NCBI GenBank assembly: GCA_000830295.1
Contig: CP010425.1
Span: 832,001-896,000 of the forward strand
Length of the DNA stretch: 64,000 nt
From: an archaeon GW2011_AR15
GTDB lineage: Archaea > Nanobdellota > Nanobdellia > Woesearchaeales > GW2011-AR15
Direction: 5' to 3'
Notes under the pieces: model-generated
The model's database searches: none
Seen by the model: only the letters and a program-made list of their open reading frames with translations
What the model was told of the DNA's origin: nothing
Shown: in pieces, positions 1,390 to 58,414 of the stretch
Layout: each line of letters opens with the position of its first letter
Numbering within the stretch: the stretch's first letter is position 1
Position numbers and translations under genes: made by a program

Positions 1390-3126
1390 ATGGAAGATTC
1401 AAGGAAGATACATTATTTCTTTTTGGTTCTTGTATTCCTGTTTGGGTGCTACGGGGCATATGTAAATTATAAGGTCCTGCAGGAAGACACTACCCCCTTT
1501 ATTTATGATATCCTGAATAGCTATGTGACAAGCATTGATCATTACAGGTTCCTACAGCAGGGAGATATCATAGGATTTATCAATCATTACATCACTAAAT
1601 ATTCACGGGACTATCCTGCACTTTATATGTTCCAGACTTTTCCTTTCTATGCTATCTTTGGGATCAGCGAAGATGCCGCAGCTATGTCCAATACAATTTA
1701 TCTTTTCATCCTTCTATTTTCAGTATATTTCATAGGAAAGAAAATGAAGAATTCCTATGCAGGTTTTCTTTCAGCTTCAATAGTACTCTTCATTCCCGGA
1801 GTGCTGTCTTTCTCCAGGGTTTACCTTCCTGACTTCGGTCTTGCAGCATTTTTTCTGTTAAGCCTGGCTCTTTTCCTTTATTCTGACTTTTTTAGAGATA
1901 GGAAGTACTCTATCCTTTTTGGGGCCTCTGCAGGGCTTGGCATGCTCATCAAATATACCTTTTTTGTGTATATTGGAGTGGCTCTGTTCATATTATACTT
2001 AAGGCATCTTAAGAACGAAAAAAAACTTCTTCTCACTAAACAGCAAAGAAGCAATCTCATGATTTCACTGTCTATTGCAGTTTTATTTATGCTATTGTGG
2101 TACCCCATGAATTTTTTAAATGCTCTTGGGTATATCACAAGAAAATCTTCTTATGATGCTACTGTGGCATTTAATGATACAGGCATATTTCAAAGATGGA
2201 ATCTTGTAATGGATAGGTATGTCTTTGAGATGAATGACATGCTGGCGGGATTTGTTTATCCTGTTTTTTTGATAATAGTATTATTACTCCTGGAAAAAGT
2301 TTTTTCCCGCCGAAAGACCCAGGAAAAGAAAACAATAGAACTGCAAGACCTGGTCTACATCTCACTTATTATTTTTTTATTCTCCCTGAATTCCACGGCA
2401 TCTGTAAGATATCTAATATTTATGCTGCCTTTTGCAGCCCTGCTCATTGGAGTTTACATATACACTAAATTTGATATTTTTCTCGGTTATTTTAAGAACA
2501 GGAATGAGACAAAATTCATGGTATTTGTGCTTCTTGTACTCCTTCTTGTATCATCAGCAGGCTCATATTACAGCGCATGGCTTGAACAAAAAAAACCTGC
2601 AGAAATAGCAGATGACATATTCATATATGGACTCCAGGTGCCAAAACACCACCATAATAAGCATATAGAAATTATTGAAGCAATAAACAGAAGAATGGAA
2701 GGACTCAACGGCCTTTCTGTGCTTTCATTCCAGGAGTCTGAGGTTATGTATATTGTATCTCATTCCAAGCACCTGTCGGGCTACGGCTATGAATTTCCGC
2801 CTGCCTGCCTTACGACTCCAGATTACGTCGACAGGGGAAGCTGTTATATCCCGGAGGAAATAAACTGCGATTGGTATTTCCTGCAGAATGATATTATAAT
2901 AGACTCAGACATCCATACAAGCATAAAGACGGCTGAAGTATGGGCCAAGTTCCCTGAAAGAAAAGAAATCCTGGACGAGATTCTTAATGTGTGGGAAAGC
3001 TGCAAGGAAAATTATATCCTGGCGGAAACAATAGAGGATGTGCCTGTTTTAACAAGCTATATCCCCAGAGAGTATACAAATTCGACATTGTATCTGTATG
3101 TGAAAAAATCCAAGCTTAGTTCTTAA
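1390..3126 (+). CDS. Multi-TM GT-C fold glycosyltransferase (ArnT/PMT-like)
   Basis: About 11-12 hydrophobic segments; YPALY loop, SRVYLPD, GLGMLIKY and RYLIFMLP motifs typical of ArnT/PMT-like proteins; soluble C-terminal domain. Confidence 0.75.
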   Translation: MEDSRKIHYFFLVLVFLFGCYGAYVNYKVLQEDTTPFIYDILNSYVTSIDHYRFLQQGDIIGFINHYITKYSRDYPALYMFQTFPFYAIFGISEDAAAMSNTIYLFILLFSVYFIGKKMKNSYAGFLSASIVLFIPGVLSFSRVYLPDFGLAAFFLLSLALFLYSDFFRDRKYSILFGASAGLGMLIKYTFFVYIGVALFILYLRHLKNEKKLLLTKQQRSNLMISLSIAVLFMLLWYPMNFLNALGYITRKSSYDATVAFNDTGIFQRWNLVMDRYVFEMNDMLAGFVYPVFLIIVLLLLEKVFSRRKTQEKKTIELQDLVYISLIIFLFSLNSTASVRYLIFMLPFAALLIGVYIYTKFDIFLGYFKNRNETKFMVFVLLVLLLVSSAGSYYSAWLEQKKPAEIADDIFIYGLQVPKHHHNKHIEIIEAINRRMEGLNGLSVLSFQESEVMYIVSHSKHLSGYGYEFPPACLTTPDYVDRGSCYIPEEINCDWYFLQNDIIIDSDIHTSIKTAEVWAKFPERKEILDEILNVWESCKENYILAETIEDVPVLTSYIPREYTNSTLYLYVKKSKLSS

Positions 3127-35809: not shown

Positions 35810-36415
35810 CTAGGCCACTGCAATATTGAGCTTGCTCATCTTCCTGTATAATGTTCTCTTTCCGACATCAATCGCAGCAGCTGTCCTCTGCACATTGTAT
35901 TCATTGTTTTTCAGGGCCTTCTCCAGGTATTCTTTTTCAAAAACTTCAACTGCGTCTTCATAGGAGTGGTGGCCTATATGCTCTGCAATAATCTGGGAGA
36001 TGTCATCAAGGTTTGAGTAGATCCTCTTTATCTTGGACTCATCAAAGCCTGAAAGAGTGCCTTCAAGAATCTGGTGTATGTTTTCTTTCATGTACTCTGC
36101 AGGCTTTACAAGCTCCCTTCTGTGGCTCTCCGTGTCTATGTCAAGCTCTGTTATTATCCTGTGGATATGCCTCCTGTGGAGCTGGGCTTTTTTTGCAGCC
36201 AGGCTTATGTTTCCAAGGCTCAGCACGAGAAGGTCATTGAAATAATTTTTCAGGAATTCTTTCCTGGCCTCTTTAAATGTTTTTGAGAAGTCTATGGTAA
36301 ACAGGAGCCTGAACTCGAGATTGGTTGCTATATCCTCCTTAATCTCCTTTGCCTCTTTGCCTCTGCTTACGTGCCTGTTTATTGCACTGTCAACGAGCGT
36401 GGATATTGTCTCCAT
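35810..36415 (-). CDS. Tandem Fis-like (HTH_8) DNA-binding protein
   Basis: Two repeats: EFLKNYFNDLL…GNISLAAKKAQLHRRHIHRII and FEKEYLEKALKNNEYNVQRTAAAIDVGKRTLYRKM. Confidence 0.75.
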   Translation of the reverse strand: METISTLVDSAINRHVSRGKEAKEIKEDIATNLEFRLLFTIDFSKTFKEARKEFLKNYFNDLLVLSLGNISLAAKKAQLHRRHIHRIITELDIDTESHRRELVKPAEYMKENIHQILEGTLSGFDESKIKRIYSNLDDISQIIAEHIGHHSYEDAVEVFEKEYLEKALKNNEYNVQRTAAAIDVGKRTLYRKMSKLNIAVA

Positions 36416-37718: not shown

Positions 37719-37844
37719 TGCGGGTGAGGGGATTCGAGCCCCCGACCTCAGGATTTCTAGCGCGCATGAAATATCATCGCCTAACGGCTCATCACTCATA
37801 AGCATATGAGTCCTGCGCTATAGACCAAGCTAAGCTACACCCGC
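37719..37844 (-). tRNA. tRNA-Met(CAU), elongator type, with 50-nt intron at position 37/38 (37755-37804)
   Basis: Acceptor stem GCGGGTG/CACCCGC-A; anticodon arm CAGGA-CTCATA|A-TCCTG; T arm GGGGG-CTCGAAT-CCCCT; no encoded CCA. Confidence 0.9.
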
Positions 37845-37884
37845 TTAGTCCAGAAAGAATTCTATGAGTTTTATAAAAGTATTG

Positions 37885-38295
37885 CTATATACTCTCAATA
37901 ATTTTGTTTTTTACTGCTATCATCTCATCTTCACTATAGTCCTTCTTTGGCCAGTGCTTTAACCCGTCATTTTCAAATCTTGGGATTATATGGAAGTGTG
38001 TATGGAAAACAACCTGTCCGGCAACAGGTCCCGTGTTCGCAATGAAATTAAATCCTTCTGCACTTACTGCCTTCATCACAGCCGCGCTTATTTTCTTTGC
38101 TGCCTTCATCACAGCCGCCAGATCCTTATTATTGTCCTCCAGCATGTCCTTTGAATGCTTCTTTGGCACTATCAGGGTATGCCCTTTATTTGCAGGCGCA
38201 ATATCCAGGAAGGCCATAACATCCTTATCCTCATATACTTTTAATGTAGGTATTTTGCCTGCTATTATCTTACAAAATATACAATTTTCATCCAT
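37885..38295 (-). CDS. HIT family nucleotide hydrolase
   Basis: CIFC, FLDIAP, GHTLIVPKKH, GQVVFHTHFHIIPR. Confidence 0.95.
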   Translation of the reverse strand: MDENCIFCKIIAGKIPTLKVYEDKDVMAFLDIAPANKGHTLIVPKKHSKDMLEDNNKDLAAVMKAAKKISAAVMKAVSAEGFNFIANTGPVAGQVVFHTHFHIIPRFENDGLKHWPKKDYSEDEMIAVKNKIIESI

Positions 38296-38362
38296 TTTAC
38301 ATTCACCTTTTGATGCTTAATTTTGCTTTGTATTTAAACCTTTTTTCTAAGCGCAGTATTTT

Positions 38363-38514
38363 GTCTCAAAAATGTCTTATTTTTGTCTTTTTTTGTATCT
38401 TTCTCGTCTCAAAATTAAATTTGAGACACCCCTTCATTTCCTGTGGAACTTTGGCTGTTTTTTGAGTCTCAATCAGGTCTCAAAAAATTCTGAGAAGGTA
38501 TCAGTTTTGTCTCA
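38363..38514. repeat. Array of GTCTCA/TGAGAC hexamers in an AT-rich divergent intergenic region
   Basis: Exact copies at 38363, 38406, 38422 (inverted), 38466, 38477, 38509, plus near matches. Confidence 0.8.
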
Positions 38515-38529
38515 TCCATCACATAAAAA

Positions 38530-38537
38530 TTTATATA
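38530..38537 (+). promoter_or_regulatory. TATA box of the winged-helix gene
   Basis: AAAAA-TTTATATA about 24 bp before the ATG at 38561. Confidence 0.55.
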
Positions 38538-38560
38538 CTAGTTAATGATTTTTCATTTTC

Positions 38561-39019
38561 ATGTTCGGGGGCGATAGTGATAGAAATAGCATTGCGAAAG
38601 CTTTTTCCAAGATAACCGGAGATGTAGCGAAGCTCAGTGAAGAGCTAAACAGGCTTAAGCAGGACCACAGTAAACTTCTGGAAGAAAATATGGCCCTAAA
38701 AAAGCAGATTTCAGCCAATTCTTTTTCTTTTGACAGAGAGATGATAGGCAGCATTGTTAAAGAAACCCTAAAGCATGCGCCGAGCAGCAATAGCCTGATG
38801 AAAAAATTCAACAAGAAAAGAAAAAGCATCCTGACTGTAAGGATAAGCAACCTTGCAATGCACCAGAACCTTACTCTCCCGGAGATAAAAGAGATTGTAG
38901 TTGACCAGGAAGCATTATGCTCAAAAGCAACTTTCTACAGGTATGTTGACAGGATGAAATCAAGAGGCATGCTTGACTTTGTCAAGATAAATGAAATGGA
39001 CATTGTTGTCAAGGCCTAA
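38561..39019 (+). CDS. Coiled-coil plus winged-helix DNA-binding protein
   Basis: N-terminal heptad helix; C-terminal LTLPEIKEIVV…CSKATFYRYVDRMKSRGML wHTH. Confidence 0.7.
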   Translation: MFGGDSDRNSIAKAFSKITGDVAKLSEELNRLKQDHSKLLEENMALKKQISANSFSFDREMIGSIVKETLKHAPSSNSLMKKFNKKRKSILTVRISNLAMHQNLTLPEIKEIVVDQEALCSKATFYRYVDRMKSRGMLDFVKINEMDIVVKA

Positions 39020-39039
39020 GTAAATATTAAGAAAATAAA

Positions 39040-39600
39040 TTAATAATACTCTTCATTGAAGTCAAACTCTATATCAACAAGGTTGTCTACAGGAATCTCG
39101 TTTTCTCTCTTCACTGCATTTGACCTTCTGAAATAATAGACTTCATACAGGAACTCCTCTCCGATTTCTTTCAGACCGAGCCTTTCTTCTATCTGCTCAA
39201 TAACCTTCTTTTCCTGGACAACATATTTTTCGTGTATCACTATGTCCACTCTTACATGGGGATCAAATTTCACGTAAAGGAAATTCTTTATGTTTTCGTC
39301 ATCTATTGTGAAAGTCCATTTCTCCAGGAATTCCTCCTTGTAGACACGCTTAAGCATTATTCCCTGGCGGCTTCTGAAAAGCGACGTATCTCTCTTAAGC
39401 CTGTTTATGAGCTTGAGGGCCTGCTTCCTGTCTTCTATAAAATGCTCGGATATAAGGTTGGACGAATCTCCGTCAATCCTTGTCTTGAAAACTTCCCACC
39501 CGTTATTCCTTTTTCTGGCCTCTATCTTGATTTTATGCTTCTTCGTCTCGTTTTCAAACACAATAATATCATTAGATTCAGCAATTTTTTTCCATGTCAT
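39040..39600 (-). CDS. Hypothetical protein
   Basis: 186-aa ORF with SD-like GGAGGG upstream and normal composition. Confidence 0.65.
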   Translation of the reverse strand: MTWKKIAESNDIIVFENETKKHKIKIEARKRNNGWEVFKTRIDGDSSNLISEHFIEDRKQALKLINRLKRDTSLFRSRQGIMLKRVYKEEFLEKWTFTIDDENIKNFLYVKFDPHVRVDIVIHEKYVVQEKKVIEQIEERLGLKEIGEEFLYEVYYFRRSNAVKRENEIPVDNLVDIEFDFNEEYY

Positions 39601-39718
39601 GAATTAGCCCTCCACACAATTCCTCTTTTAAATAGTTAATATGAATTTAAATCTTTTCCTTTAGTTCTCTCTTTCACATCGATAGCTTTTTAAAGACCTG
39701 TTTTTTCTGCTATAGGAT

Positions 39719-44195: not shown

Positions 44196-44945
44196 TTATT
44201 TCTTCAGCTTGTATAGCTGATAAATGCTTAAACCAAGCAGGCTGATGCTTAGCAGCTGCACGAGGCTTAATCCAAGAACATCTACATAAAGCGGAGCCCG
44301 GAAGAATTCAGTTATAAGCCTGAGGATGCTGTATCCTGCAATGAAAGACCATATCAGGAAGCCATGCTTTCTTTTTCTTCTGTTAAGGTAAAGCATCATG
44401 CCGAACAGGACCAGCATTGAGAAGGATTCATACAATTGCGCAGGATGCCTGCATACATCATCAATTTTTTGGTAGACAACACACCATGGCAGATTTGTTG
44501 CTGTGCCTATGTGCTCAGAATTCATAAAATTGGCTATCCTTCCAAAAACCAGTATAAGCGGGAATGGAACAGAAAGGGTATCAAGGATATGCATCATGCT
44601 TACTTTATGCTTTTTGCAGTAGAAATAAACAGCAAGCACACCTCCCAGGATGCCGCCATGAAAAGCCAGCCCACCATTCCATATGGCAAATACTCCAAGC
44701 AGGTTATTTGCATAAAGAGGAAAGTCAGTAATGACATGCACCAGCCTTGCGCCTATAAGCCCGAACACCAGCATGTAGATGATTACGTCAACTGCCTTGT
44801 CTTTGTTGAGGTTCTTTATCTTATGTGCGTTCTTAGATAATATATAAGTAAGCAGGATAAAGCCTAAGGCGTAGACTATACCGTAAAATCTTATTGAGAA
44901 CGGACCAACAGAAACAAGATCCGGGTTTATATTATTTATGAACAT
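44196..44945 (-). CDS. lgt: Prolipoprotein diacylglyceryl transferase
   Basis: IRFYG, GARL.HV, GGLAFHGG, GRIANFMNSE, RHPAQLYE, Y…R…EFFR. Confidence 0.93.
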   Translation of the reverse strand: MFINNINPDLVSVGPFSIRFYGIVYALGFILLTYILSKNAHKIKNLNKDKAVDVIIYMLVFGLIGARLVHVITDFPLYANNLLGVFAIWNGGLAFHGGILGGVLAVYFYCKKHKVSMMHILDTLSVPFPLILVFGRIANFMNSEHIGTATNLPWCVVYQKIDDVCRHPAQLYESFSMLVLFGMMLYLNRRKRKHGFLIWSFIAGYSILRLITEFFRAPLYVDVLGLSLVQLLSISLLGLSIYQLYKLKK

Positions 44946-46447: not shown

Positions 46448-48949
46448 CTACAATTCGTCCAGCCGCATCTGCTTTGACTTTATCAGTCTGTCAACTTCTT
46501 CGACTTCATCCCTAAGTATGTCTTTCTCTTTTGTTTTTCTTGATTCTATTATTATCTTCTCTGAAATGTCATCATCCTGCTCCAGCCTGAATTGTATCTC
46601 TCTGCTCCTGCTGATGACCTCTTTAGGCATGCCTGCGAGCTTTGCAACGTGGATGCCGTAGCTCTTGTCGGTTCCTCCCTCAATTATCTTTCTCAGGAAG
46701 AGTATCTTGTCCTCTTTCTCCTCAACTGCAATGTTGTAATTTTTTACTCCGCTGAGCTCTTTTTCCAGGTTGTTCAGCACATGGTAATGCGTTGCAAACA
46801 GCGTTTTTGCCTTTATTTTCTTTGTTATATATTCAGCGACTGACCACGCAATCGCGACTCCGTCATAAGTGCTTGTTCCTCTCCCGATTTCATCCAAGAG
46901 TATCAGCGATCTTTCTGTTGCGCTGTTTAATATCTGGGCAGTATCGGACATCTCTACCATGAACGTGCTCTGTCCTTTTGAGATGTCATCACTGGCACCT
47001 GTCCTGAAAAATATCTTGTCAATTATCCCGATTTCAGCGTTTTTTGCGGGCACAAAGCAACCGGCCTGCGCCATTATTATATTGAGAGCGGCCTGTTTAA
47101 GATAAATAGATTTTCCTGCCATGTTGGGACCTGTTATTATCATTGTCCTGTTCTTCTCGCCTATAAGAACATCATTTGCAACAAAGTCAGTGAGCTGCTC
47201 TATGACGGGATGCCTGCTTTCCTCCAGTACCAGCTTATACTCTTCATCGACACTTGGTTTTCTGTAGTTGTTAATTATAGAAACTTTGGCAAAAGAGCAC
47301 AGCATGTCAACATATGCTATTTTTTCAGCAGCATCCTGTATCTTTTTCGTCTCTTTTTTTATCTCTCCCTCTATCTCCCCAAACAAGTTCTGTTCCAAAA
47401 CTATTCTTTTTTCCTCGGATGTAAGGATATCCTCCTCAAGCTTTTTCAGCTCTTCTGTTATAAATCTCTCGCTGCTGACAAGAGTCTGTTTCTTTATGTA
47501 ATTATCGGGCACGAGATTCAGGTTTGTTTTTGTAACGTCAATATAATACCCGAAGATTTTGTTGTATCTTATCTTTAGGGATTTTATGCCTGTGCTTTCC
47601 CTCTCTTTGTCTTCAATCTGGCTGATAAGCTTTTTTCCCTCCCGGGAGATTTTCCTGAGCCTGTCAAGCTCTTCATTATATCCTTCCCTGATGAACCCGC
47701 CGTTCAGCGTATTGGCAGGCGCATCATCAGATATGGCCTCATCTATAAGTTCCGCCACATGGCTTAAACTCTCAAATTCTGAAAGCTTTGAAAGAAGATC
47801 TGCATCAGTTTCAGCAAGATATTTTTTTATTTGTGGGATTAATTCAAGAGAACCCTGCAGCGACACAAGATCCCTTGGATTTGAATTGCCGTAATTTATC
47901 CTTGAAATGAGGCGCTCAATATCTGATACATTCTTCAGCAGATCCCTTGTTTCCTCAAGCACAAAGTTCTTTTTTATCAGCTCTTCCACAGAACTTAGTC
48001 TTTGGTTTATCTCCTTTAGGTCCCTTAGAGGCTGAAGCAGGGATTTTTTCAGCAGTCTCAATCCCATTGGTGTAAGAGTCTTATCAAGCACTTTCAGCAG
48101 TGAAGGCTTCTCTCTGCTGTTTATTATCTCAAGATTATTTGCAGTTGTGCTGTCAAAAGCAAGAAACTCAGAGTCTGAGTAGTATTTTAGGGTGTTTATG
48201 TGTGATAATGAACTTTTCTGCATATCCTGGAGATAAGAAAGCATTGCTCCTGCAGAGGATACAGCATTTTCTTTTCTCTTGAGCCCGAAACCATCAAGCG
48301 ACATAACTCCGAAATGCTTCTTGAGGCAGGCCCTTGCATTATCAAAATAGAACTCAACATCGTTCCTGAACGTCAGATAGAACTTTTTCCCCCGGAATTG
48401 CTCCTCTGTCCTGCTCCCTTCCATGCTCATGGGAAGTATGACCTCTTTTGGCTCATAGATTACCAGCTCAGCTATTGCCTTTTCCATACTTTCTGACTCA
48501 GTGGCAAAAAACTCTCCTGTAGATGCATCCACAAAAGATAATCCTATTTTCTCGCCCTTGTATATTGAAGCGATAAAATTGTTTTCCTTGTCAAGCATCT
48601 TTTCTTCTATAACTGTTCCTGGGGTAACTACTCTTATGACTCCCCTTTTTACAACGCCTTTTGCATCTTTTGGATTTTCCAGCTGCTCAACTATTACAAC
48701 CTTATGACCATGCTTTATCATCTTTGACAGGTAGGAATCAAGCGCGTGATATGGAATTCCGGCCAGAGGGATTGCCTGCGAATTCTTCATGCCTCTCCTT
48801 GTCAGGGCTATATCAAGGGTCTTTGAGGTTATTTTTGCGTCCTCAAAAAATGTTTCGTAGAAATCGCCCATCCTGAAAAAGACGATGCAGTCCTTATACT
48901 GCCCCTTTATCTCCATATACTGCTTCATAGCAGGCGTTAATTTTTCCAT
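46448..48949 (-). CDS. mutS: DNA mismatch repair protein MutS (MutS1)
   Basis: TPAMKQY, FRMGDFYE, AGIPYH, TPGT, TGPNMAGKS, STFMVEM, DEIGRGT, FATHYH, SYGIHVAKLAG. Confidence 0.97.
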   Translation of the reverse strand: MEKLTPAMKQYMEIKGQYKDCIVFFRMGDFYETFFEDAKITSKTLDIALTRRGMKNSQAIPLAGIPYHALDSYLSKMIKHGHKVVIVEQLENPKDAKGVVKRGVIRVVTPGTVIEEKMLDKENNFIASIYKGEKIGLSFVDASTGEFFATESESMEKAIAELVIYEPKEVILPMSMEGSRTEEQFRGKKFYLTFRNDVEFYFDNARACLKKHFGVMSLDGFGLKRKENAVSSAGAMLSYLQDMQKSSLSHINTLKYYSDSEFLAFDSTTANNLEIINSREKPSLLKVLDKTLTPMGLRLLKKSLLQPLRDLKEINQRLSSVEELIKKNFVLEETRDLLKNVSDIERLISRINYGNSNPRDLVSLQGSLELIPQIKKYLAETDADLLSKLSEFESLSHVAELIDEAISDDAPANTLNGGFIREGYNEELDRLRKISREGKKLISQIEDKERESTGIKSLKIRYNKIFGYYIDVTKTNLNLVPDNYIKKQTLVSSERFITEELKKLEEDILTSEEKRIVLEQNLFGEIEGEIKKETKKIQDAAEKIAYVDMLCSFAKVSIINNYRKPSVDEEYKLVLEESRHPVIEQLTDFVANDVLIGEKNRTMIITGPNMAGKSIYLKQAALNIIMAQAGCFVPAKNAEIGIIDKIFFRTGASDDISKGQSTFMVEMSDTAQILNSATERSLILLDEIGRGTSTYDGVAIAWSVAEYITKKIKAKTLFATHYHVLNNLEKELSGVKNYNIAVEEKEDKILFLRKIIEGGTDKSYGIHVAKLAGMPKEVISRSREIQFRLEQDDDISEKIIIESRKTKEKDILRDEVEEVDRLIKSKQMRLDEL

Positions 48950-50365: not shown

Positions 50366-52321
50366 ATGATGAAAGCAAAAGACATGAACAAGGTTACAGT
50401 ATTCGGCCCGAAGAGCTATATGAAGGAGATCATAGAAACCCTCTATAATCTGAACGTCGTCCATATAGAAGATTATACAAAAAAGACAGAAGAGGATTAT
50501 TTTGAGATAGGAGAGCCTTATGCAGAGAATGAAAAGTATGCAGATATCCTTATTAAGCTTAGGACCATGATATCAAAGCTTGGGCTCAGGAAATCAGGAA
50601 AAAACCCAAGCAAGATTTCCATAAAGGAAATTGAGTCAAAAACCAATGAGCTTTATGACAGAATCACCGCACTCCTCAGGAAGGAGGAGTATTTTTCAGA
50701 TATAAAACGGGCATATGAAAAAAAGAAAGTGGAGGAAGCTGTTTCGTCCCTTAAGCTCGGCTCTGAGTCAGATTACTCATCAATGGCTCATTATGTTGGA
50801 TTTATCAATACCAATGAGGCAGAGTTTAAAGAGAAAGTAGGAAAATTAACAGCAAAATTTGAGCTGTACTGGACAAACTATGACGGAATTCCGGTAATGG
50901 CCTTGCTTGCAGGAGTCAAAAAGCATGACAAGATAATCCGGCTGCTTAATGAGTACGAGTTTTCACCAATGGACAACCCACTTGTAAAAAAGCAGCTTAA
51001 GCTGAAATCAAAATCAGGGATTAAATTCGTCAAAGAAGATTATCAGCTTAAACTTGTTACAGAAAAACTTGAGCATATAAAAAAAGAGATTGAAAAGCTA
51101 AAGGAGCATAACAGCGGATTCTTAGAAGAGGCAGAGAAAAAATTAAGCATTGAAGCTGAGAAAGCGGAAGCGCCATTGAGGATAGCAACCACAAAGAACA
51201 CATTCCTCATAAAAGGGTGGGTTCCTGTTGAAAACAAGGAGAAGCTCCAGTCTTCCCTTGAAGCAATAACAAAAGGCAGGGTAATGGTGGAATTTGAAAA
51301 GCCGACCACAAAAGAAAAGCCGCCAATAGCTTTTAACCATCCGAAAATAGTCGAGCCGTTTGAGGCATTCATGAATCTCTATACGCTTCCGAGCTACAAG
51401 GAGATAGACCCGACATTCTTCATGTTCCTTACATTTCCCATATTTTTCGGATTCATGCTCGGTGATGTTGGCTATGGACTTGTAATACTCACCTTATTCT
51501 TGATTTTGAAGAAGAAAATGCCGGGAGCAAAGAATTTCCTGAATGCATTTATCATAGCTGCAGTTGCATCAATAGCATTCGGAGCGGTATTTGGGGAATA
51601 TTTCGGATATGAAGAAGTTTCTCCAGGGGTTGCAGCAGCCCTTGGCATACACCCGGAAGAGATATTTTCCCACGGGGAAATTGAGACAGTATACCCTATC
51701 CCGCATCTGTTCAGCAGAAGCCATGGGATAAACGATTTACTCTCAATGGCAATACTATTCGGAGTTGTGCATGTCCTGATTGGTTACATGATAGGATTCA
51801 TCAATGTTGCAAAAGCGCACGGCATTAAGCACGCAATCTTTGAAAAAGCAGGATGGATGCTGTTATTTCCTGCAGTGATATACCTGCTGACTGATTTTCT
51901 CGGTGTCGTGACAGGATTTATAGCGCTGATGCTTGCGCCATTAATACCGCCAATGCCGGTAATGATAGCTTTGGCACTACTAGGGGTATTATTAATAATT
52001 AAAGGAGAAGGGGTCCAGGGTGCAATTGAGCTTCCTGCATTGTTGTCAAATATACTTTCATATGCAAGGCTGATGGCAGTCGGCCTGGCCTCATTAAGCC
52101 TGGCCCTTGTAGTTAATGATCTTGCAGGCCAGATGTTTTCATCAGGAATAATAGGGATAATAATGGGCACAATAGTACTGGTGCTGGGGCACACAATCAA
52201 CATAGCTCTCGGCGTGCTGAGCCCATTCTTGCATTCTCTCAGGCTTCACTATGTTGAGTTTTTCACAAAGTTCTTCAAAGGCGGAGGAACAAAATACAAT
52301 TCATTTGGATACAAAAATTAA
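50366..52321 (+). CDS. atpI: A-type ATP synthase subunit I (a)
   Basis: GWVP, PSYKEIDPT, FFGFMLGDVGYG, SYARLMAVGL, LRLHYVEFF. Confidence 0.96.
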   Translation: MMKAKDMNKVTVFGPKSYMKEIIETLYNLNVVHIEDYTKKTEEDYFEIGEPYAENEKYADILIKLRTMISKLGLRKSGKNPSKISIKEIESKTNELYDRITALLRKEEYFSDIKRAYEKKKVEEAVSSLKLGSESDYSSMAHYVGFINTNEAEFKEKVGKLTAKFELYWTNYDGIPVMALLAGVKKHDKIIRLLNEYEFSPMDNPLVKKQLKLKSKSGIKFVKEDYQLKLVTEKLEHIKKEIEKLKEHNSGFLEEAEKKLSIEAEKAEAPLRIATTKNTFLIKGWVPVENKEKLQSSLEAITKGRVMVEFEKPTTKEKPPIAFNHPKIVEPFEAFMNLYTLPSYKEIDPTFFMFLTFPIFFGFMLGDVGYGLVILTLFLILKKKMPGAKNFLNAFIIAAVASIAFGAVFGEYFGYEEVSPGVAAALGIHPEEIFSHGEIETVYPIPHLFSRSHGINDLLSMAILFGVVHVLIGYMIGFINVAKAHGIKHAIFEKAGWMLLFPAVIYLLTDFLGVVTGFIALMLAPLIPPMPVMIALALLGVLLIIKGEGVQGAIELPALLSNILSYARLMAVGLASLSLALVVNDLAGQMFSSGIIGIIMGTIVLVLGHTINIALGVLSPFLHSLRLHYVEFFTKFFKGGGTKYNSFGYKN

Positions 52322-52347
52322 GTTCAAAACACACGGAGGTTAAAAAA

Positions 52348-52581
52348 ATGGCAGCAGATATCGGAACAGGATTGATTGCTATCGGTGCATCGCTGGCTGT
52401 AGGCCTTACTGCTCTTGGTACAGGAATGGCAGAGCAGGCAATAGGTACAGCAGCAATCGGTGCAATGGCTGAGAAAGAAGAACTTTTCGGTAAAGGGCTT
52501 ATCCTTACAGTTATCCCGGAGAGTATCGTTATTTTCGGTCTGGTAGTAGCTATCCTGATAATTGGATTGGCAGCAGCATAA
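52348..52581 (+). CDS. atpK: A-type ATP synthase subunit K (c), single hairpin
   Basis: Two TM helices with IPESIVIFG ion-binding Glu. Confidence 0.95.
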   Translation: MAADIGTGLIAIGASLAVGLTALGTGMAEQAIGTAAIGAMAEKEELFGKGLILTVIPESIVIFGLVVAILIIGLAAA

Positions 52582-52599
52582 AAACTGCTTTGATCTAAG

Positions 52600-53142
52600 A
52601 TGGGGATAAACGAAGTAAAAAAAGAAATACTGGACAATGCCGGAAAAGAGGCATCCAGAATTCTGGCAGAAGCTGGGAAAGAGGAGAAAGAGATAGTAGG
52701 CTCAATAGCCTCAGCAGTAAAGCAGAGCAAAGAGAAACAGGAAAAAGACATAAAGAGGACAGTTGAGCAGTACAGGTCCTCTGTGCTTTCAGAGGCAGAA
52801 TCAGCAGTCAAGAAAGAGAGGCTTTCCCTTGAGAAGAAGATTATCAGCAAGGTTTTCTCCAGTGCAGCCGAGAAGCTTGGCAGCCTTAGCCAGAAAAAGA
52901 GGGAGCAACACCTAAACAGGCTTTCAAAAAAGATAAAGGAGCTTGGATACCCTACGGTCTATTGTTCTCTGAAAGACCAGAAGCACCTCAAGAAATATAG
53001 TCCGAAAGCAGCAGATATTCTTGGAGGCATAGTTCTTGAAAACAAACAGGGAGATACAAGGGTAGATCTGAGCTACGATATGCTTCTTGAAGAAGTTAAG
53101 AAGGAGGAAATGTCAGCGATTGTCAGGACATTGTTTGCATAA
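52600..53142 (+). CDS. atpE: A-type ATP synthase subunit E
   Basis: ILGGIVLE…RVDLSY…LF; operon position. Confidence 0.88.
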   Translation: MGINEVKKEILDNAGKEASRILAEAGKEEKEIVGSIASAVKQSKEKQEKDIKRTVEQYRSSVLSEAESAVKKERLSLEKKIISKVFSSAAEKLGSLSQKKREQHLNRLSKKIKELGYPTVYCSLKDQKHLKKYSPKAADILGGIVLENKQGDTRVDLSYDMLLEEVKKEEMSAIVRTLFA

Positions 53143-53147
53143 TAAAA

Positions 53148-54200
53148 ATGACAGAGCAAAAATTCAGGTATAAGTTTAATCCGTATACATTTGCCAGAAT
53201 CAGCGCTATGAGGTCCCTTCTCCTGAAAAAAGAAGATTATGACAAGATAATGAAGATGGACACTTCAGAGATAGTAAAATTTCTCCAGGAGGGAGTCTAC
53301 AGCCAGGAGATAAGCGATGCGGCAATAAGGTATTCAGGCCTGAAGCTTGTGGAAGTCGCCCTAAGCAGGCACCTTCAGAAAATATTTCTGAAGCTGAAAC
53401 TGATTTCAGACCCAAGCATTGAATTCCTTATGAACCAGTATCTGAAAAGGTATGATTTCTACAACCTGAAAACAATACTGAGGGCAAAACAGACAGGAGC
53501 CCGGGAAGAGGAAGTCAGGGATCTCCTGTTGCCTGTCGGCTCGCTCAGGACAGAGAAACTGAGGCAGCTTTTTGGAAAGGATACGGCAAGAGAGATAATA
53601 GCATCGTCAGGCGTGGTTAATATGAAGGATTTCTCTTCAGCAATAAACAATTATGAGCAGACACATCAGCTGAGCGAGATTGAGAACCTGTTTGACTACC
53701 ATTATTATATTGATACATTGCAGTTCTCAGAAAAGATACCTAAAGAAGGGAAGCTTTTCGAGGAATTTTTCAGGCATGAATTTGATGTATACAACCTAAA
53801 GCTGCTGCTAAGGAAGATATTCTTTGAGCTTCCTGAAGACTATGTAAAAAAATACGTCATATACGGAGGAAAGAACATATCAAAGGCTGCCCTTAACTCG
53901 CTTCTGAAGGCAGAGAATTATTCCGAATTTATGAATGCCCTAAGCAGGACGAAATACAGCAGAATACTTCCGGATATGAAAGGGAAAAAGGGAGCACTTC
54001 TTAGGACAGAGATTGCACTTGACTCGATGCTTCTTGAGAAAAGCATATTATTATTTCACCAGCATCCTCTTACAGTAGATATAGTTCTTGGCTATATGTT
54101 TGCAAAAGAGATTGAAGTCAGGAATCTGAGGATAATAATAAAATCAAAAAAACTGGAATTTACAGAAGATTATGTCAAGGACCTAGTGATGGTGAGATAA
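53148..54200 (+). CDS. atpC: A-type ATP synthase subunit C
   Basis: YTFARISAMRS.LL, D.YNLKTILR, KEIEVRNLRII. Confidence 0.92.
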   Translation: MTEQKFRYKFNPYTFARISAMRSLLLKKEDYDKIMKMDTSEIVKFLQEGVYSQEISDAAIRYSGLKLVEVALSRHLQKIFLKLKLISDPSIEFLMNQYLKRYDFYNLKTILRAKQTGAREEEVRDLLLPVGSLRTEKLRQLFGKDTAREIIASSGVVNMKDFSSAINNYEQTHQLSEIENLFDYHYYIDTLQFSEKIPKEGKLFEEFFRHEFDVYNLKLLLRKIFFELPEDYVKKYVIYGGKNISKAALNSLLKAENYSEFMNALSRTKYSRILPDMKGKKGALLRTEIALDSMLLEKSILLFHQHPLTVDIVLGYMFAKEIEVRNLRIIIKSKKLEFTEDYVKDLVMVR

Positions 54201-54512
54201 ATGGCAGATTTGGCAGTTGTCGGGGATAGCGAATTCGTAATGGGGTTCGAGCTCATAGGAATAAAAAAAATCTTTGAAGGAGAGACGCCAGCAGAGCTGA
54301 AAAACTCATTCAGCCGGGCACTGTCAGATAGGACAACAGGAATAATAGTCACAAATGATAAGGCTCTTGGAAAGCTTGACCTTAATTTCAGGAGAAATGT
54401 TGAGAACTCAATAAGCCCGGTCACGGTTGTGCTTTCCACAAGCATGGCAGCACAGCAGAACCTTAGGGACATGATAAAAAAAGCAATAGGAATTGATTTA
54501 ATGAACAGATAA
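54201..54512 (+). CDS. atpF: A-type ATP synthase subunit F
   Basis: AVVGD.EFVMGFELIG, IKKAIGIDL. Confidence 0.93.
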   Translation: MADLAVVGDSEFVMGFELIGIKKIFEGETPAELKNSFSRALSDRTTGIIVTNDKALGKLDLNFRRNVENSISPVTVVLSTSMAAQQNLRDMIKKAIGIDLMNR

Positions 54513-54522
54513 TAGGTGAATC

Positions 54523-56274
54523 ATGATGAAAGAAAAAGGAAAACTAGTAAGGATTGCCGGCCCGGTTGTAGTGGCAGTAGGCATAAATGCAAGAATGTAT
54601 GACCTTGTTAAAGTCGGTAACGAAAACCTGATGGGAGAAGTTATTCAGGTTGACGGCGACAGGGTGACGATCCAGGTATATGAGGACACTTCAGGCATAA
54701 AGCCCGGAGAGCCCGTGGTAAATATGGGCCTTCCTCTCTCAGTAAAGCTCGGGCCAGGGCTGCTTACAAGCATCTATGACGGAATCCAGAGGCCTCTCCC
54801 GGTCCTTTCAAAGAAAATGGGGGATTATATCCAGAGGGGAGTTACAGCATCAGGGCTTGATGAATCAAAGAAATGGGAGTTCAGGGCACTTGTCAAGAAA
54901 GGCGATAAAGCCTCTCCTGGGATGATTATCGGGGAGGTTCAGGAAACAGAAACAATAAAGCACAGAATACTTGCTCCGCCAGAAGAAAAATATGAAGGAA
55001 AAATAAAGGAAATCAAGTCAGGCAAGTTTACAGTAAATGATGTAGTGGGAAAGCTTGAAAACGGCGCAGAATTAAGACTGAGCCATGAATGGCCGGTAAG
55101 GGTCCCAAGAAGGCTGGCAGAGAAATCAGCTCCGAATATGCCGCTTATAACAGGGCAGAGGATTTTTGACGGACTTTTCCCTCTTGCAAAAGGTGGAGTG
55201 GCAGCTATCCCCGGGCCGTTTGGGGCAGGGAAGACAGTTTCACAGCAGCAGCTTGCCAAGTGGTCTGACGCGGATATTGTGGTATATATCGGCTGCGGGG
55301 AAAGGGGGAACGAGATGACAGAAGTTCTTACAGAATTCCCGCATCTGAAGGATCCGAAGACAGGCAAGCCGCTGATGAACAGGACAGTGCTTATAGCAAA
55401 CACATCAAATATGCCGGTTGCTGCAAGGGAAGCTTCAATCTATACAGGAATCACAATTGCAGAATATTACAGGGACCAAGGATATTCAGTCGCCCTGATG
55501 GCAGACTCAACAAGCAGGTGGGCAGAAGCAATGAGGGAGATTTCATCAAGGCTTGAGGAAATGCCCGGAGAAGAAGGCTATCCTGCTTATTTATCAACAA
55601 GGCTTGCAGAATTTTACGAAAGGGCAGGCATAGGAAAAACACTTTCAGGAGATATCGGTTCAGTATCAGTTATCGGAGCAGTAAGTCCGCCCGGAGGAGA
55701 TTTTTCAGAGCCTGTTACACAAAATACCCTGAGAGTTACAAAAACATTCTGGGCCCTTGATGCAAAGCTTTCCCAGAGAAGGCATTTTCCGAGCATCAAC
55801 TGGCTTACATCTTACAGCCTTTACAACAAGACACTGGAGCCATGGTATTCTGAGCATGTTAATCCAAACTGGTCAAGAATGATGGCAGAGATAATGTCTA
55901 TACTTCAGGAAGAAGAGAAACTGCTGGAAATTGTCCAGCTTGTAGGCTCTGATGCCCTGCCGGAAAAACAGCAGCTTACACTGGAAGTTGCAAGGATGAT
56001 AAGGGAATTTTTCCTTCAGCAGAACGCTTTTCACGATATTGATACATACTGCGAGCCAAAGAAGACATATATGCTTGCAGAGACAATCCTTTACTTCGGA
56101 GACAGGGCAAAGCAGGCCCTGGAAGAGGGAATTGCAATCGCCACCCTCCTTAACCTGAAGAGCAAGGATGAGATTGCAAACGTGAAATTTGTCAAGGATT
56201 ATGAAAAAGAGCTTAACAAAATCAAGCTGAGCATTGACAGGGAATTCAATAAAGTTGAGCAGGGTGGTCAATAA
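54523..56274 (+). CDS. atpA: A-type ATP synthase subunit A (no intein)
   Basis: [36 protein letters not shown]. Confidence 0.98.
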
Positions 56275-57725
56275 TGTTACAAAAAGAATATAAGACAATC
56301 AGGAGAATTGCAGGGCCTCTGGTCTTTGTAGAAAAGACACACCCGGTTGGCTATGGTGAGCTTGTAGCTATAAAGCTTTCAGACGGCTCTCTGAAGAATG
56401 GCCAGGTGCTTGATACAAGCGAAGACCTGGTTGTTGTCCAGGTCTTCGAAGGGACATCCAGGATTGACAAGGCATCATGGGTAAAATTCCTCGGAGAGAC
56501 AATCAAGCTTCCTGTATCTGAGAAGATGCTTGGAAGAATCCTGACAGGGGCAGGCAAGCCAAGGGATGGCGGTCCTGAAATTGTTGGGGAGAAAAGGCTT
56601 GACATTGTTGGGGCAGCCATAAATCCGCATGTCAGGAGAAGCCCGGCTGAATTCATCCAGACAGGAATTTCAACAATCGACGCGACAAACACGCTGGTAA
56701 GAGGCCAAAAACTGCCTATTTTTTCAGGCTCCGGGCTGCCGCACAACGAGATTGCACTGCAGATAGCAAGGCAGGCCAAGGTTCCTGGCAGCGAGGGAAA
56801 GTTTGCAGTAATATTCGCAGCAATGGGCATCACGAACGAGGAAGCCCAGTATTTTATGAGAGATTTCGAGGAGACAGGAGCTTTGCAGAGGGCAGTTGTC
56901 TTCCTTAACCTTGCAGACGACCCGGCTGTCGAGAGGCTTATCACTCCGAAAATGGCGCTTACAACCGCAGAGTATCTTGCATTTGAGAAAGATATGCACG
57001 TACTTGTTATTCTTACAGATATGACAAACTACTGCGAGTCACTAAGGGAGATAGGTGCAGCAAGAGAAGAAATTCCCGGAAGAAGGGGATTCCCAGGGTA
57101 CATGTATACTGACCTCGCATCAGTCTATGAAAGGGCAGGCATGATTGAGGGAAAGAAAGGATCAATCACACAAGTGCCGATTCTTACAATGGTAGGGGAC
57201 GATATTACGCACCCTATTCCTGACCTTACAGGATATATAACAGAAGGCCAGATTGTGCTTTCAAGGGAACTGCACAGGAAAGGCATCTATCCTCCTGTTG
57301 ACGTGCTTCCGTCATTGTCAAGGCTGATGAATTCAGGAATAGGGGCAAAGAAGACAAGGGATGACCACAAGCAGGTAAGCGACCAGATGTATGCTTTCTA
57401 TGCAGAAGGCCGCGACTTAAGAGGGCTTGTAGCAATTGTCGGTGAAGAAGCCCTGTCTGACAGGGATAAAAGGCTGCTTAAGTTTGCAGAACAATTCGAA
57501 AAGAAGTTCGTCCGGCAGAGCACAAAAGAGAACAGGGACATAGACAGGACACTTGAGATCGGCTGGGAACTGCTGAGAATGCTTCCGAAGAAAGAGCTTA
57601 CAAGGGTAAGCCCAGAGCTGAGAGAAAAGTATTATGGCAATGAGGAAGTTGCTCTTGACGGCCAGAAGCATGAAACTCCTCTTGAATCCGATGAAGACGA
57701 AGAAAAACTTAAGAGAGCCAAATAA
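56274..57725 (+). CDS. atpB: A-type ATP synthase subunit B
   Basis: [43 protein letters not shown]. Confidence 0.98.
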
Positions 57726-57740
57726 TTAGCGAAGGGAGGT

Positions 57741-57761
57741 TCGGAGGGCAGAGCCCTCTGA
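57741..57761. repeat. GC-rich hairpin between atpB and atpD
   Basis: TCGGAGGGC-AGA-GCCCTCTGA. Confidence 0.55.
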
Positions 57762-57796
57762 TGACCCTGGCAAAACAAAAACCATAAAACTGCAAT

Positions 57797-58414
57797 ATGA
57801 CAGACATAAAACCAACCAGGAGCGAGCTGATTAAGCTCAAGAACAAGATTAAGCTGGCTAAATCAGGGTATAAGCTCCTGAAAAAAAAGAGAGACGGGTT
57901 AATCCTGGAGTTCTTTGAGATACTTAAGGAAACAAAATCCGTCAGGCAGGAGATGACTGAGAAGTATAGGGAGGCCATTAAAAAAATAAACATGGCAAGA
58001 ATTCTTGATGGTGATATTGTAATTAAGTCTGTTTCAATGGCCATAAAAGATAAGCCGGTTATTGAAGTTGAGAACAAGAACCTTATGGGTGTTGTTGTCC
58101 CGAAAATAAACAGCAGGAATGTCAAGAAAACCCTGAAGACAAGAGGATACGGCCTTGTTACAACAAGCGCAGCAATAAACGAGGCCAGCGATGCCTATGA
58201 AGAACTTCTCGAGTACATTATCCTTGTAGCAGAAATTGAGACTGCAATGATACGGCTGCTTGAGGAGATTGACAAGACTAAGAGAAGGGTCAATGCGCTT
58301 GAGTTTGAGGTTATCCCGAAGCTTGAGAAGACAAAGAGCTTTATCCAGCTAAGACTTGAAGAGCTGGAAAGAGAGACAATCTTCAGGAGCAAAAGGATAA
58401 AAAAGAAGAGATAA
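57797..58414 (+). CDS. atpD: A-type ATP synthase subunit D
   Basis: PTRSEL, GYKLLKKKRDGL, TKRRVNALE. Confidence 0.97.
   Translation: MTDIKPTRSELIKLKNKIKLAKSGYKLLKKKRDGLILEFFEILKETKSVRQEMTEKYREAIKKINMARILDGDIVIKSVSMAIKDKPVIEVENKNLMGVVVPKINSRNVKKTLKTRGYGLVTTSAAINEASDAYEELLEYIILVAEIETAMIRLLEEIDKTKRRVNALEFEVIPKLEKTKSFIQLRLEELERETIFRSKRIKKKR

Follow-up and report, generated by a model that had tools for sequence, protein, structure and literature searches.

The genome of the archaeon GW2011_AR15 contains, in the 64,000-nucleotide stretch analyzed here (hereafter the window; genome 832–896 kb), an array of the hexamer GTCTCA directly ahead of a gene encoding a small winged-helix protein, P0001. 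A preliminary description of this stretch had read the array locus (genome 870.3–870.6 kb) as a candidate replication origin independent of Cdc6, or a partition site, and the question that the locus raises is whether such an arrangement of repeats and putative binding protein is an origin at all, or what other part it might play in the chromosome. The source genome is a single contig of 1,157,790 bp with 42.5% G+C. It carries archaeal-type genes (ribosomal protein L10e, a Nog1-type GTPase, A-type ATP synthase and Orc1/Cdc6 homologs), close homologs of P0001 are labeled 'Nanoarchaeota archaeon' or Woesearchaeota in the source databases, and the host is a DPANN archaeon. Genomes of DPANN archaea are tiny, and most of these organisms have yet to be cultured. 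To our knowledge, the regulation of archaeal Orc1/Cdc6 after initiation is largely unknown, and we know of no description of replication control in DPANN archaea.

In a canonical archaeal oriC, inverted origin recognition boxes (ORBs) flank an AT-rich unwinding element beside a cdc6/orc1 gene (Haloferax, PMC1868953; Pyrococcus, PMC1904270). For the present analysis ORBs were called with regular expressions (a strict and a loose pattern), genes with a crude longest-open-reading-frame rule, and TATA boxes by eye. The relatives' genomes used for comparison are themselves mutually related, and counts across them denote recurrence, not independent events.

A phased GTCTCA array enclosing an origin recognition box

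The array spans 38363–38514 of the window and contains the six exact copies of GTCTCA or TGAGAC, the near matches and the palindrome on which the preliminary description had remarked (Table 1). Degenerate copies stand in a 10–12 bp register with the exact ones, so that the array can be divided into two blocks, each with about five positions. The inverted repeat formed by the last exact copy of the left block and a minus-strand copy, likely the seat of a protein dimer, directly abuts a sequence between the blocks that conforms to the ORB consensus for euryarchaea given by Norais et al. (PMC1868953). The preliminary description had recognized no ORB here, and was mistaken in this respect. Scanning both strands of the whole genome with the strict pattern returned only two matches, one at 469,655, upstream of cdc6-1, and the one in the array, at 870,429, which lies ~400 kb from cdc6-1 and from the adjoining origin region, oriC1.

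GTCTCA is not an over-represented word, either in the window (23 copies versus 27.6 ± 5.0 in shuffled sequences) or genome-wide (433 copies versus 444.6 expected from a maximal-order Markov estimate). The genome-wide density check that the preliminary description had suggested thus gave no enrichment of the word as such, whereas its clustering proved unique: every other 160-bp stretch of the genome holds at most two copies. No second intergenic pair within 60 bp was found elsewhere in the genome, and a search for a regulon yielded 15 single intergenic copies without any pattern. The intergenic region that houses the array is itself long, its length being matched or exceeded by only 14% of the intergenic regions of this genome. 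An RNA gene at the locus was considered and rejected, there being no Rfam match in 37800–39700.

These observations bear on an account in which P0001 would be a plain autoregulated transcription factor, the repeats being operators of its own promoter, and perhaps of the divergent HIT gene, with Orc1/Cdc6 acting as a co-regulator through the ORB and the real targets elsewhere consisting of single hexamers too short to detect. The spacing of the promoter-proximal repeat agrees with this account, since the gap to the TATA-like box, judged by eye, is 15 bp here and 4–8 bp in most relatives, and the paralog arrays described below are placed likewise. The lack of any other GTCTCA cluster or intergenic pair in the genome and the patternless single copies speak against it, as does the position of the ORB, ~80–100 bp upstream of the TATA box and hence far for a repressor. 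We regard this account as decidedly unlikely.

Table 1. Coordinates of the array locus and of the loci compared with it (window positions unless stated otherwise)
Feature	Position	Strand	Remarks
Whole intergenic module, 265 bp	38296..38560	.	Between divergent HIT gene and winged-helix gene
Left iteron block	38363..38411	+	Exact copies at 38363, 38406; degenerate copies GTCTTA 38375, GTCTTT 38385, GTATCT 38395; spacing 10–12 bp
Inverted repeat GTCTCA-N10-TGAGAC (GTCTCAAAATT/AAATTTGAGAC)	38406..38427	.	Minus-strand exact copy starts at 38422; directly abuts ORB
ORB (mini-ORB then G-string), reads GTTCCACAGGAAATGAAGGGG	38429..38449	-	Strict pattern; between the blocks, one base from TGAGAC copy
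Right iteron block	38466..38514	+	Exact copies at 38466, 38477, 38509; degenerate copy GTATCA 38498
Putative TATA box (TTTATATA)	38530..38537	+	By eye; 24 bp upstream of ATG, 15 bp past last iteron
Gene for P0001, 152 aa, N-terminal coiled coil and C-terminal winged helix	38561..39019	+	Putative iteron-binding protein
oriC1, probable main origin	genome 469,590–469,950		Inverted ORBs and AT-rich stretch, directly upstream of cdc6-1 (loci L001/L172)
Paralog loci	L026, L029, L030, L032, L033, L035, L135:14,366–14,570		(G/T)TCCCA arrays

The winged-helix protein P0001

Both a family search and the AlphaFold model of P0001 (mean predicted local distance difference test score, pLDDT, 84.6) bear out the earlier assignment of the gene directly downstream of the array to a coiled-coil, winged-helix protein. 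The model consists of a long helix (residues 4–53), a linker of lower confidence and a winged helix (residues ~77–151), whose recognition helix, LCSKATFYRY, shows no substitution in an alignment of 21 sequences. The predicted fold, with one winged helix and a coiled coil, is not the two-winged-helix fold of a Rep-type initiator, and no match to the Rep, Cdt1/WhiP or Orc families was found with Pfam, PDB sequences, Foldseek, PHROGs or NCBIfam.

Comparison of the model with the PDB using Foldseek retrieved only generic winged helices (PadR, PerR/Fur, ArsR, TubR and SSV1 F-93; E ≥ 0.0056). The repressors among them, PadR, Fur/PerR and ArsR, fit a transcription factor that controls its own gene, and the weak TubR match (E = 0.016–0.034) fits a centromere-like anchor, a possibility taken up below and one against which the generic character of the matches also counts. 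The Pfam Fur profile (PF01475) scored 22.8 bits, below its cut-off of 23.1, and aligned over profile positions 5–66 of 121, the DNA-binding part only; with the metal-binding dimerization domain unmatched, membership of the Fur family was rejected. An identity with YabA was likewise discarded as Pfam coiled-coil noise (NCBIfam 18.7 bits versus a cut-off of 128). Searches with P0001 returned nothing in PHROGs, nothing below E = 0.03 among PDB sequences, and only unnamed archaeal clusters in the ESM Atlas.

Co-inheritance of array, ORB and gene

Relatives of P0001 occur in 15 of the 19 other genomes of the source genome's family and are single-copy in 29 of 41 genomes (the source genome, G000, counted). 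Across the phylum, members of the two subfamilies distinguished below were found in 86 of 201 sampled genomes, every listed match belonging to the source genome's order. Among the loci of the 20 best relatives, 18 have at least three GTCTCA copies within 450 bp upstream of the gene, and in the remaining two the array lies on the gene's other side, which answers in the affirmative the question, put in the preliminary description, of whether orthologs of the winged-helix gene share the array.

The association was examined from the DNA side and from the protein side. Of 121 genomes, each representing one family, 27 contain the DNA pattern GTCTCA-N5-GTCTCA, usually as several matches at a single locus, compared with six genomes for the reversed control, and in loci picked on the DNA pattern alone a P0001-family gene adjoins the array in 11/11 (E = 1e-19 to 1e-27) and an ORB (loose pattern) is present in 9/11. 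Conversely, the best 28 loci picked by protein profile have an array in 27 cases and an ORB in 26. In a 48-genome set, comprising one locus per genome and excluding the array-less locus L171 and seven paralog loci, arrays range from 3 to 13 copies (median 7), and an ORB lies inside the array in 44 loci. A metagenome scan seeded with the recognition-helix peptide recovered 70 loci, 43 of which were usable (non-duplicate, with at least 300 bp upstream); an array of at least four copies was found in 34 of these, an ORB in 35 and both in 30, and one metagenome contig carries the largest array, of 17 copies. As a control, 30 cdc6-1 loci of the order were examined in the same manner: 26 have ORBs within 900 bp upstream, in inverted pairs on both strands in 11 of the 13 loci with two or more, and GTCTCA occurs in the 30 loci as three single copies only, with no cluster. 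This comparative evidence indicates that array, ORB and gene belong together, and it supports the view that array and winged-helix gene have been conserved and inherited together.

The phasing of the array also recurs. Among 187 same-strand neighbor spacings, 84 are of 11 bp, 22 of 21–22 bp, 13 of 32–33 bp and 5 of 43–44 bp, and 132 fall within 0.1 turn of a whole number of helical turns. The conserved part of the repeat is the hexamer only, the spacers being A/T-rich and variable. Many loci (L039, L040, L043 and others) share a layout with four repeats at 11-bp spacing on either side of a central ORB. The junction between ORB and iteron recurs as well. Of 80 ORBs in 78 loci, 38 have a GTCTCA that begins one base beyond the G-string, and at 21 of the 80 an inverted GTCTCA partner follows at N10 beyond the junction, as in the window.

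Neighbors other than the P0001 gene are not conserved across families in the 48 loci, the HIT gene being present in 14 and an unnamed family in 16, and no cdc6 lies near these loci. The divergent HIT gene in 14 loci is compatible with shared operators, but the turnover of all other neighbors weighs further against a plain autoregulator, as do arrays that occupy 150–250 bp with the copy numbers given above, far more than self-repression would need. In the window, a gene convergent with the winged-helix gene (39040–39600, minus strand) encodes a 186-aa protein with no family match, and it holds the same position in nine genomes of the family.

A mobile-element origin of the module was considered and rejected. 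No relatives of P0001 were found in IMG/VR viral contigs (no search of plasmid collections was made), the metagenome module loci that were checked have no terminal repeats and include no circular small contigs, and neither source yielded an extrachromosomal copy of the module.

Phased blocks of this kind would also suit a centromere-like anchor, in which P0001 would coat the repeats and its coiled coil would tether the locus to segregation or positioning machinery whose genes lie elsewhere, with the ORB as an optional addition. In favor of this, the two blocks with their 11-bp phasing, as in centromere repeats, stop shortly before the promoter in both subfamilies, each genome has only one such locus and shows no visible regulon, and some arrays lack an ORB. 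Against this, no nucleoside triphosphatase motor gene is adjacent or among the recurrent neighbors in the 48 loci, and the only ParA/MinD-like gene found in the genome with PF13614 (AAA_31) is at 562.7 kb, 308 kb away. An anchor would, moreover, leave unexplained the full ORB at a fixed junction in most arrays, and the module is present in only the 86 of 201 sampled genomes mentioned above, both subfamilies included. We consider such an anchor quite improbable.

A sister subfamily with its own repeat word

Longer paralogs of P0001 (~215–260 aa) adjoin arrays of a different word, (G/T)TCCCA, in seven genomes (G035, G037, G028, G020, G032, G034 and G116). These arrays hold 6–13 copies at six loci, with ten counted in G116. 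Where the sequence was inspected they are organized in two blocks with exact 11-bp phasing, and the gene-nearest block abuts a TATA-like box. The paralog recognition helix reads LCSKSSFYR(I/L)L, and helix and word covary, LCSKATFYRY going with GTCTCA and LCSKSSFYR(I/L)L with (G/T)TCCCA. This covariation is the best evidence here that each protein would bind its own array. At one further locus (L027; G036:C3, ~79.7–79.9 kb) TGAGAC and TGGGAA-type words are mixed in one array and the protein has an intermediate helix, LCSKSTFYRIL, a combination that may represent a transitional specificity.

A profile of the two subfamilies matched 955 cluster representatives (50% identity) at E ≤ 0.001 among 1.84 billion proteins, 215 of them at E ≤ 1e-30, and members are named 'hypothetical' wherever any name is attached. 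With its covarying recognition helix and repeat word, this superfamily is a natural system in which to study the evolution of DNA-binding specificity.

Neighbors of the paralog genes include a small methyltransferase (three loci), a second coiled-coil helix-turn-helix protein and a tyrosine recombinase (3/7 loci). A link between integrase and paralog was rejected: an integrase lies near three of the seven loci, but that of G116 is not the chromosomal XerA.

A probable main origin at cdc6-1

The window holds no cdc6/orc1 gene, as the preliminary description had noted, and the two homologs in the genome lie well outside it. The stronger, cdc6-1 (genome 468.4–469.6 kb), reaches 422 bits with TIGR02928 and contains a Cdc6_C domain; the second, divergent homolog (genome 991,015–992,007, plus strand) scores 167.5 bits, below the TIGR02928 cut-off, has no Cdc6_C match, and has no ORB nearby under the strict pattern. 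At oriC1 the strict ORB at 469,655 is accompanied by a second ORB-like element, inverted, at ~469,778, with the AT-rich stretch between them, the classic layout of an archaeal origin; the best 60-bp window there is 93% AT, within the top 0.5% of intergenic regions.

Third-codon-position skew was corrected by subtracting the mean sense-strand bias, one bias being assumed for all genes, and steps were scored left versus right of each point on a 5-kb grid with 50- or 100-kb windows. In the source genome the corrected AT skew (AT3) traces one clean V that bottoms out at 469,018 and is highest from ~1,040 kb to 36 kb, the antipode of oriC1 being at 1,048 kb. The largest AT3 step genome-wide (50-kb windows) is at 470,000 (z = 4.27), compared with z = 0.36 (50 kb) and 0.08 (100 kb) at the array locus, and the global minimum of the keto/amino disparity, at 469,772, is inside oriC1. 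Because of its inverted ORB partner, its 93% AT stretch and the strongest strand-composition switch, the cdc6-1-linked site at genome 469.7 kb, not the array locus, is the main origin of this chromosome.

The same analysis of relatives confirmed a cdc6-1-linked origin in G116 and G161. In G116 there is a strong step at cdc6-1 (GC3 z = -3.9) and one of opposite sign at the module (z = +1.6 to +1.7); in G161 the skew minima (103.7–106.6 kb) lie beside cdc6-1 at 111.5 kb, and only a small dip is seen near the module at 214 kb. G103 gave no clear corrected-skew signal at either cdc6-1 or the module. The corrected GC skew (GC3) of the source genome is less clear than AT3, with a cumulative minimum at 669 kb and a step of z = 0.28–1.42 at the array locus. 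Its largest positive step in 50-kb windows, at 880 kb, is close to the array locus (z at the locus 1.42), and in G116 the largest positive step in 100-kb windows, at 380 kb, is close to the module; these GC3 steps (z 1.4–1.7) are weak hints of a local signal.

The proposal in the preliminary description, in which the locus would be a main or co-equal origin independent of Orc1 with P0001 as its initiator, finds some support in the raw composition of the region. The raw global GC-skew minimum, at 873,172, is ~3 kb from the array locus and the gene-orientation minimum, at 880,949, is beside it, so that both fall 3–10 kb from 870.4 kb; the iterons adjoin the gene of their putative binding protein, and relatives exist whose arrays lack an ORB. 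Genes at 3–38 kb of the window are indeed mostly on the minus strand, and those to the right mostly on the plus strand, although the right side is mixed. The switch arises because a mostly minus-strand cluster at 3116–30455 (radical-SAM/B12-binding enzymes, sulfatases, glycosyltransferases and an ABC exporter) lies on one side and the plus-strand A-type ATP synthase operon at 50366–58414 on the other, and the local GC-skew and gene-strand switch reflects these large same-strand operons on either side of the array locus. The raw skew minimum is attributed to gene orientation because it is gone after coding-strand correction, and raw skew was accordingly set aside as origin evidence. Corrected skew points to a cdc6-linked origin elsewhere, an outcome that the preliminary description had itself named as contradicting its proposal. 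An Orc1-independent origin, already disfavored by the single AT3 V and the negligible AT3 step at the site, is further opposed by the presence of an ORB at the locus, the lack of a marked AT-rich stretch there, the single winged helix of P0001 with no match to initiator families, and the many genomes of the order found without the module. We consider it highly improbable. More generally, origin calls in genomes of this kind can be led astray by raw GC skew and by switches in gene strand.

In some relatives the cumulative skews do not return to zero. GC skew ends at -25,663 and AT skew at +26,070 on G116:C1 (1,000,545 bp), and AT skew ends at -22,443 on G103:C1 (909,956 bp). This strand-wide asymmetry of G116 and G103 persists at third codon positions after correction for gene orientation.

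A proposed role in replication initiation

We consider the chances about even that the locus serves replication initiation as an autoregulated iteron–protein complex that would hold Orc1/Cdc6 at a second, non-canonical site. The intergenic region would then be the assembly site of one dedicated nucleoprotein complex. P0001 would dimerize through its N-terminal coiled coil and bind the GTCTCA words through the recognition helix of its winged helix, and, because the words repeat once per helical turn, it would cover a single face of the DNA over ~150 bp, divided into two blocks. With the gene-nearest block ending just upstream of the TATA box, the complex would set the level of its own synthesis by repressing its own promoter. 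Orc1/Cdc6 would occupy the ORB between the blocks, where the inverted GTCTCA pair is one base from the G-rich end of the ORB, and the complex would hold one initiator molecule fixed next to a P0001 dimer.

Autoregulation is very likely part of this mechanism because of the short distance between the last repeat and the TATA box in this genome and its relatives. Neither the ORB nor arrays as large as 17 copies are accounted for by autoregulation. Having a single arrayed target and no visible regulon, P0001 most likely acts through the complex itself.

Two forms of this role can be envisaged by analogy. The complex may constitute a non-firing site of initiator control, similar to Haloarcula oriC2D or Escherichia coli datA, a form that we put forward tentatively. 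Alternatively, and with similar probability, it may mark an origin that is conditional or dormant and follows the plan of a bacterial iteron replicon carrying a host-initiator box.

Several observations weigh against a role centered on the initiator. Four GTCTCA arrays (L247, L046, L170 and L227) have no recognizable ORB, and none was found in or beside the paralog arrays at the seven loci examined; at L034 the sole match to the ORB expressions is ~350 bp past the 3' end of the gene. Because arrays without an ORB exist, the core function of array and protein would be independent of Orc1, which weakens Orc1 control as the primary purpose. One to three ORBs would be too few to titrate an initiator that is abundant, and for this lineage all functional steps are ones that we infer from sequence comparison. 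The conditional-origin form faces additional difficulties. No robust corrected skew inflection was seen at the module in G000, G116, G103 or G161. There is no marked AT-rich unwinding element at the array locus, where the best 60-bp window is 78% AT, a value equaled or beaten by 42% of 443 intergenic regions. The ORB at the locus is single and lacks an inverted partner, apart from a candidate half-site, degenerate and inverted and judged by eye only, to the left of the array in this family, and in the 48-genome set all 12 module loci with several ORBs have them in direct orientation.

A more specific version of initiator control would make the module an archaeal counterpart of the bacterial datA, DARS and crtS sites, with a phased scaffold of the lineage-specific P0001 that docks one Orc1/Cdc6 at an ORB outside the origin. 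Through its fixed contact with the G-rich end of this box, the scaffold might then switch the activity of the initiator, or time re-initiation as the fork passes. We judge this version unlikely. If it is correct, the superfamily of 955 clusters, with at least two repeat specificities, would represent unrecognized single-locus chromosome-organizing factors in DPANN archaea. The locus provides two defined components, a DNA of 265 bp and a protein of 152 aa, that can be used in vitro with recombinant Orc1. No published description of the module was found among the matches listed in full-text searches of openly available literature.

Relation to known systems

Like a canonical oriC, the array locus has a consensus ORB, intergenic repeats and a neighboring gene for a DNA-binding protein. 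Unlike one, it has no inverted ORB pair, marked AT-rich stretch, adjacent cdc6 or corrected skew switch, and it differs from the cdc6-linked origins of the same order in that its repeats are GTCTCA, a word not clustered at those origins.

Two archaeal elements offer closer comparisons. At Sulfolobus oriC1, the ucm element is bound by UBP, a non-initiator protein, among the ORBs, and the authors close by asking whether divergent archaea have proteins analogous to UBP (Dhanaraju et al., PMC12141716). That study describes UBP as a nucleoid protein of high abundance that has >300 sites, each origin carrying one ucm. The module resembles this arrangement in that the motif of a second, presumably non-initiator protein is placed among ORBs. 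P0001 differs from UBP so described in apparently having a single arrayed target, beside its own gene and not at the main origin.

The second is oriC2D of Haloarcula hispanica, an ORB-rich element that restrains oriC2, probably by titrating Cdc6E (PMC3936714). As described in that study, it has 11 ORBs, lies directly downstream of its cdc6 gene and has no dedicated accessory protein. In both cases the ORBs are not themselves the origin and are proposed to control the initiator. Unlike oriC2D as so described, the module has one to three ORBs, is 400 kb from cdc6-1, and has its ORBs embedded in the array of another protein.

Bacterial iteron replicons with DnaA boxes (pSC101, F, P1 and Vibrio chromosome 2) combine iterons, an inverted copy and a host-initiator box beside the Rep gene. 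Compared with the array, the iterons of these replicons are longer and mostly recur at intervals of about two helical turns. The Rep proteins carry two winged-helix domains, and the replicons depend on an AT-rich stretch. Like them, the module has its word both as direct iterons and in an inverted copy, next to the gene for the putative binding protein, and includes a host-initiator box, whereas its iterons are short and 11-bp spaced, its protein has one winged helix, and no extrachromosomal copy was found in the collections named above.

In parC/ParR of plasmid R1 and in tubC/TubR, two blocks of 11–12 bp phased repeats lie around or ahead of the promoter of the gene for the binding protein, which in TubR is a winged helix. 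The phased two-block repeats of the module ahead of its protein's gene follow the same plan. The module differs in having no adjacent actin-, tubulin- or ParA-type motor gene and in carrying an ORB in its central spacer.

Sulfolobus oriC3 is reportedly an active origin with a neighboring initiator gene, whiP, and WhiP is said to be a relative of Cdt1. The likeness lies in the pairing of a putative chromosomal replication element with a neighboring non-Orc winged-helix gene. P0001, unlike WhiP, shows no relationship to Cdt1, and the module locus shows no sign of firing.

Bacterial-type genes in the window

Three genes elsewhere in the window, all on the minus strand, have a bacterial appearance. 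The gene at 44196–44945 gives a strong match to bacterial-type prolipoprotein diacylglyceryl transferase, Lgt (PF01790, E = 2.5e-65), unusual in an archaeon; the product of the one at 35810–36415 contains an HTH_8 domain of the bacterial Fis type, and the one at 46448–48949 encodes a full-length MutS of bacterial type with domains I–V.

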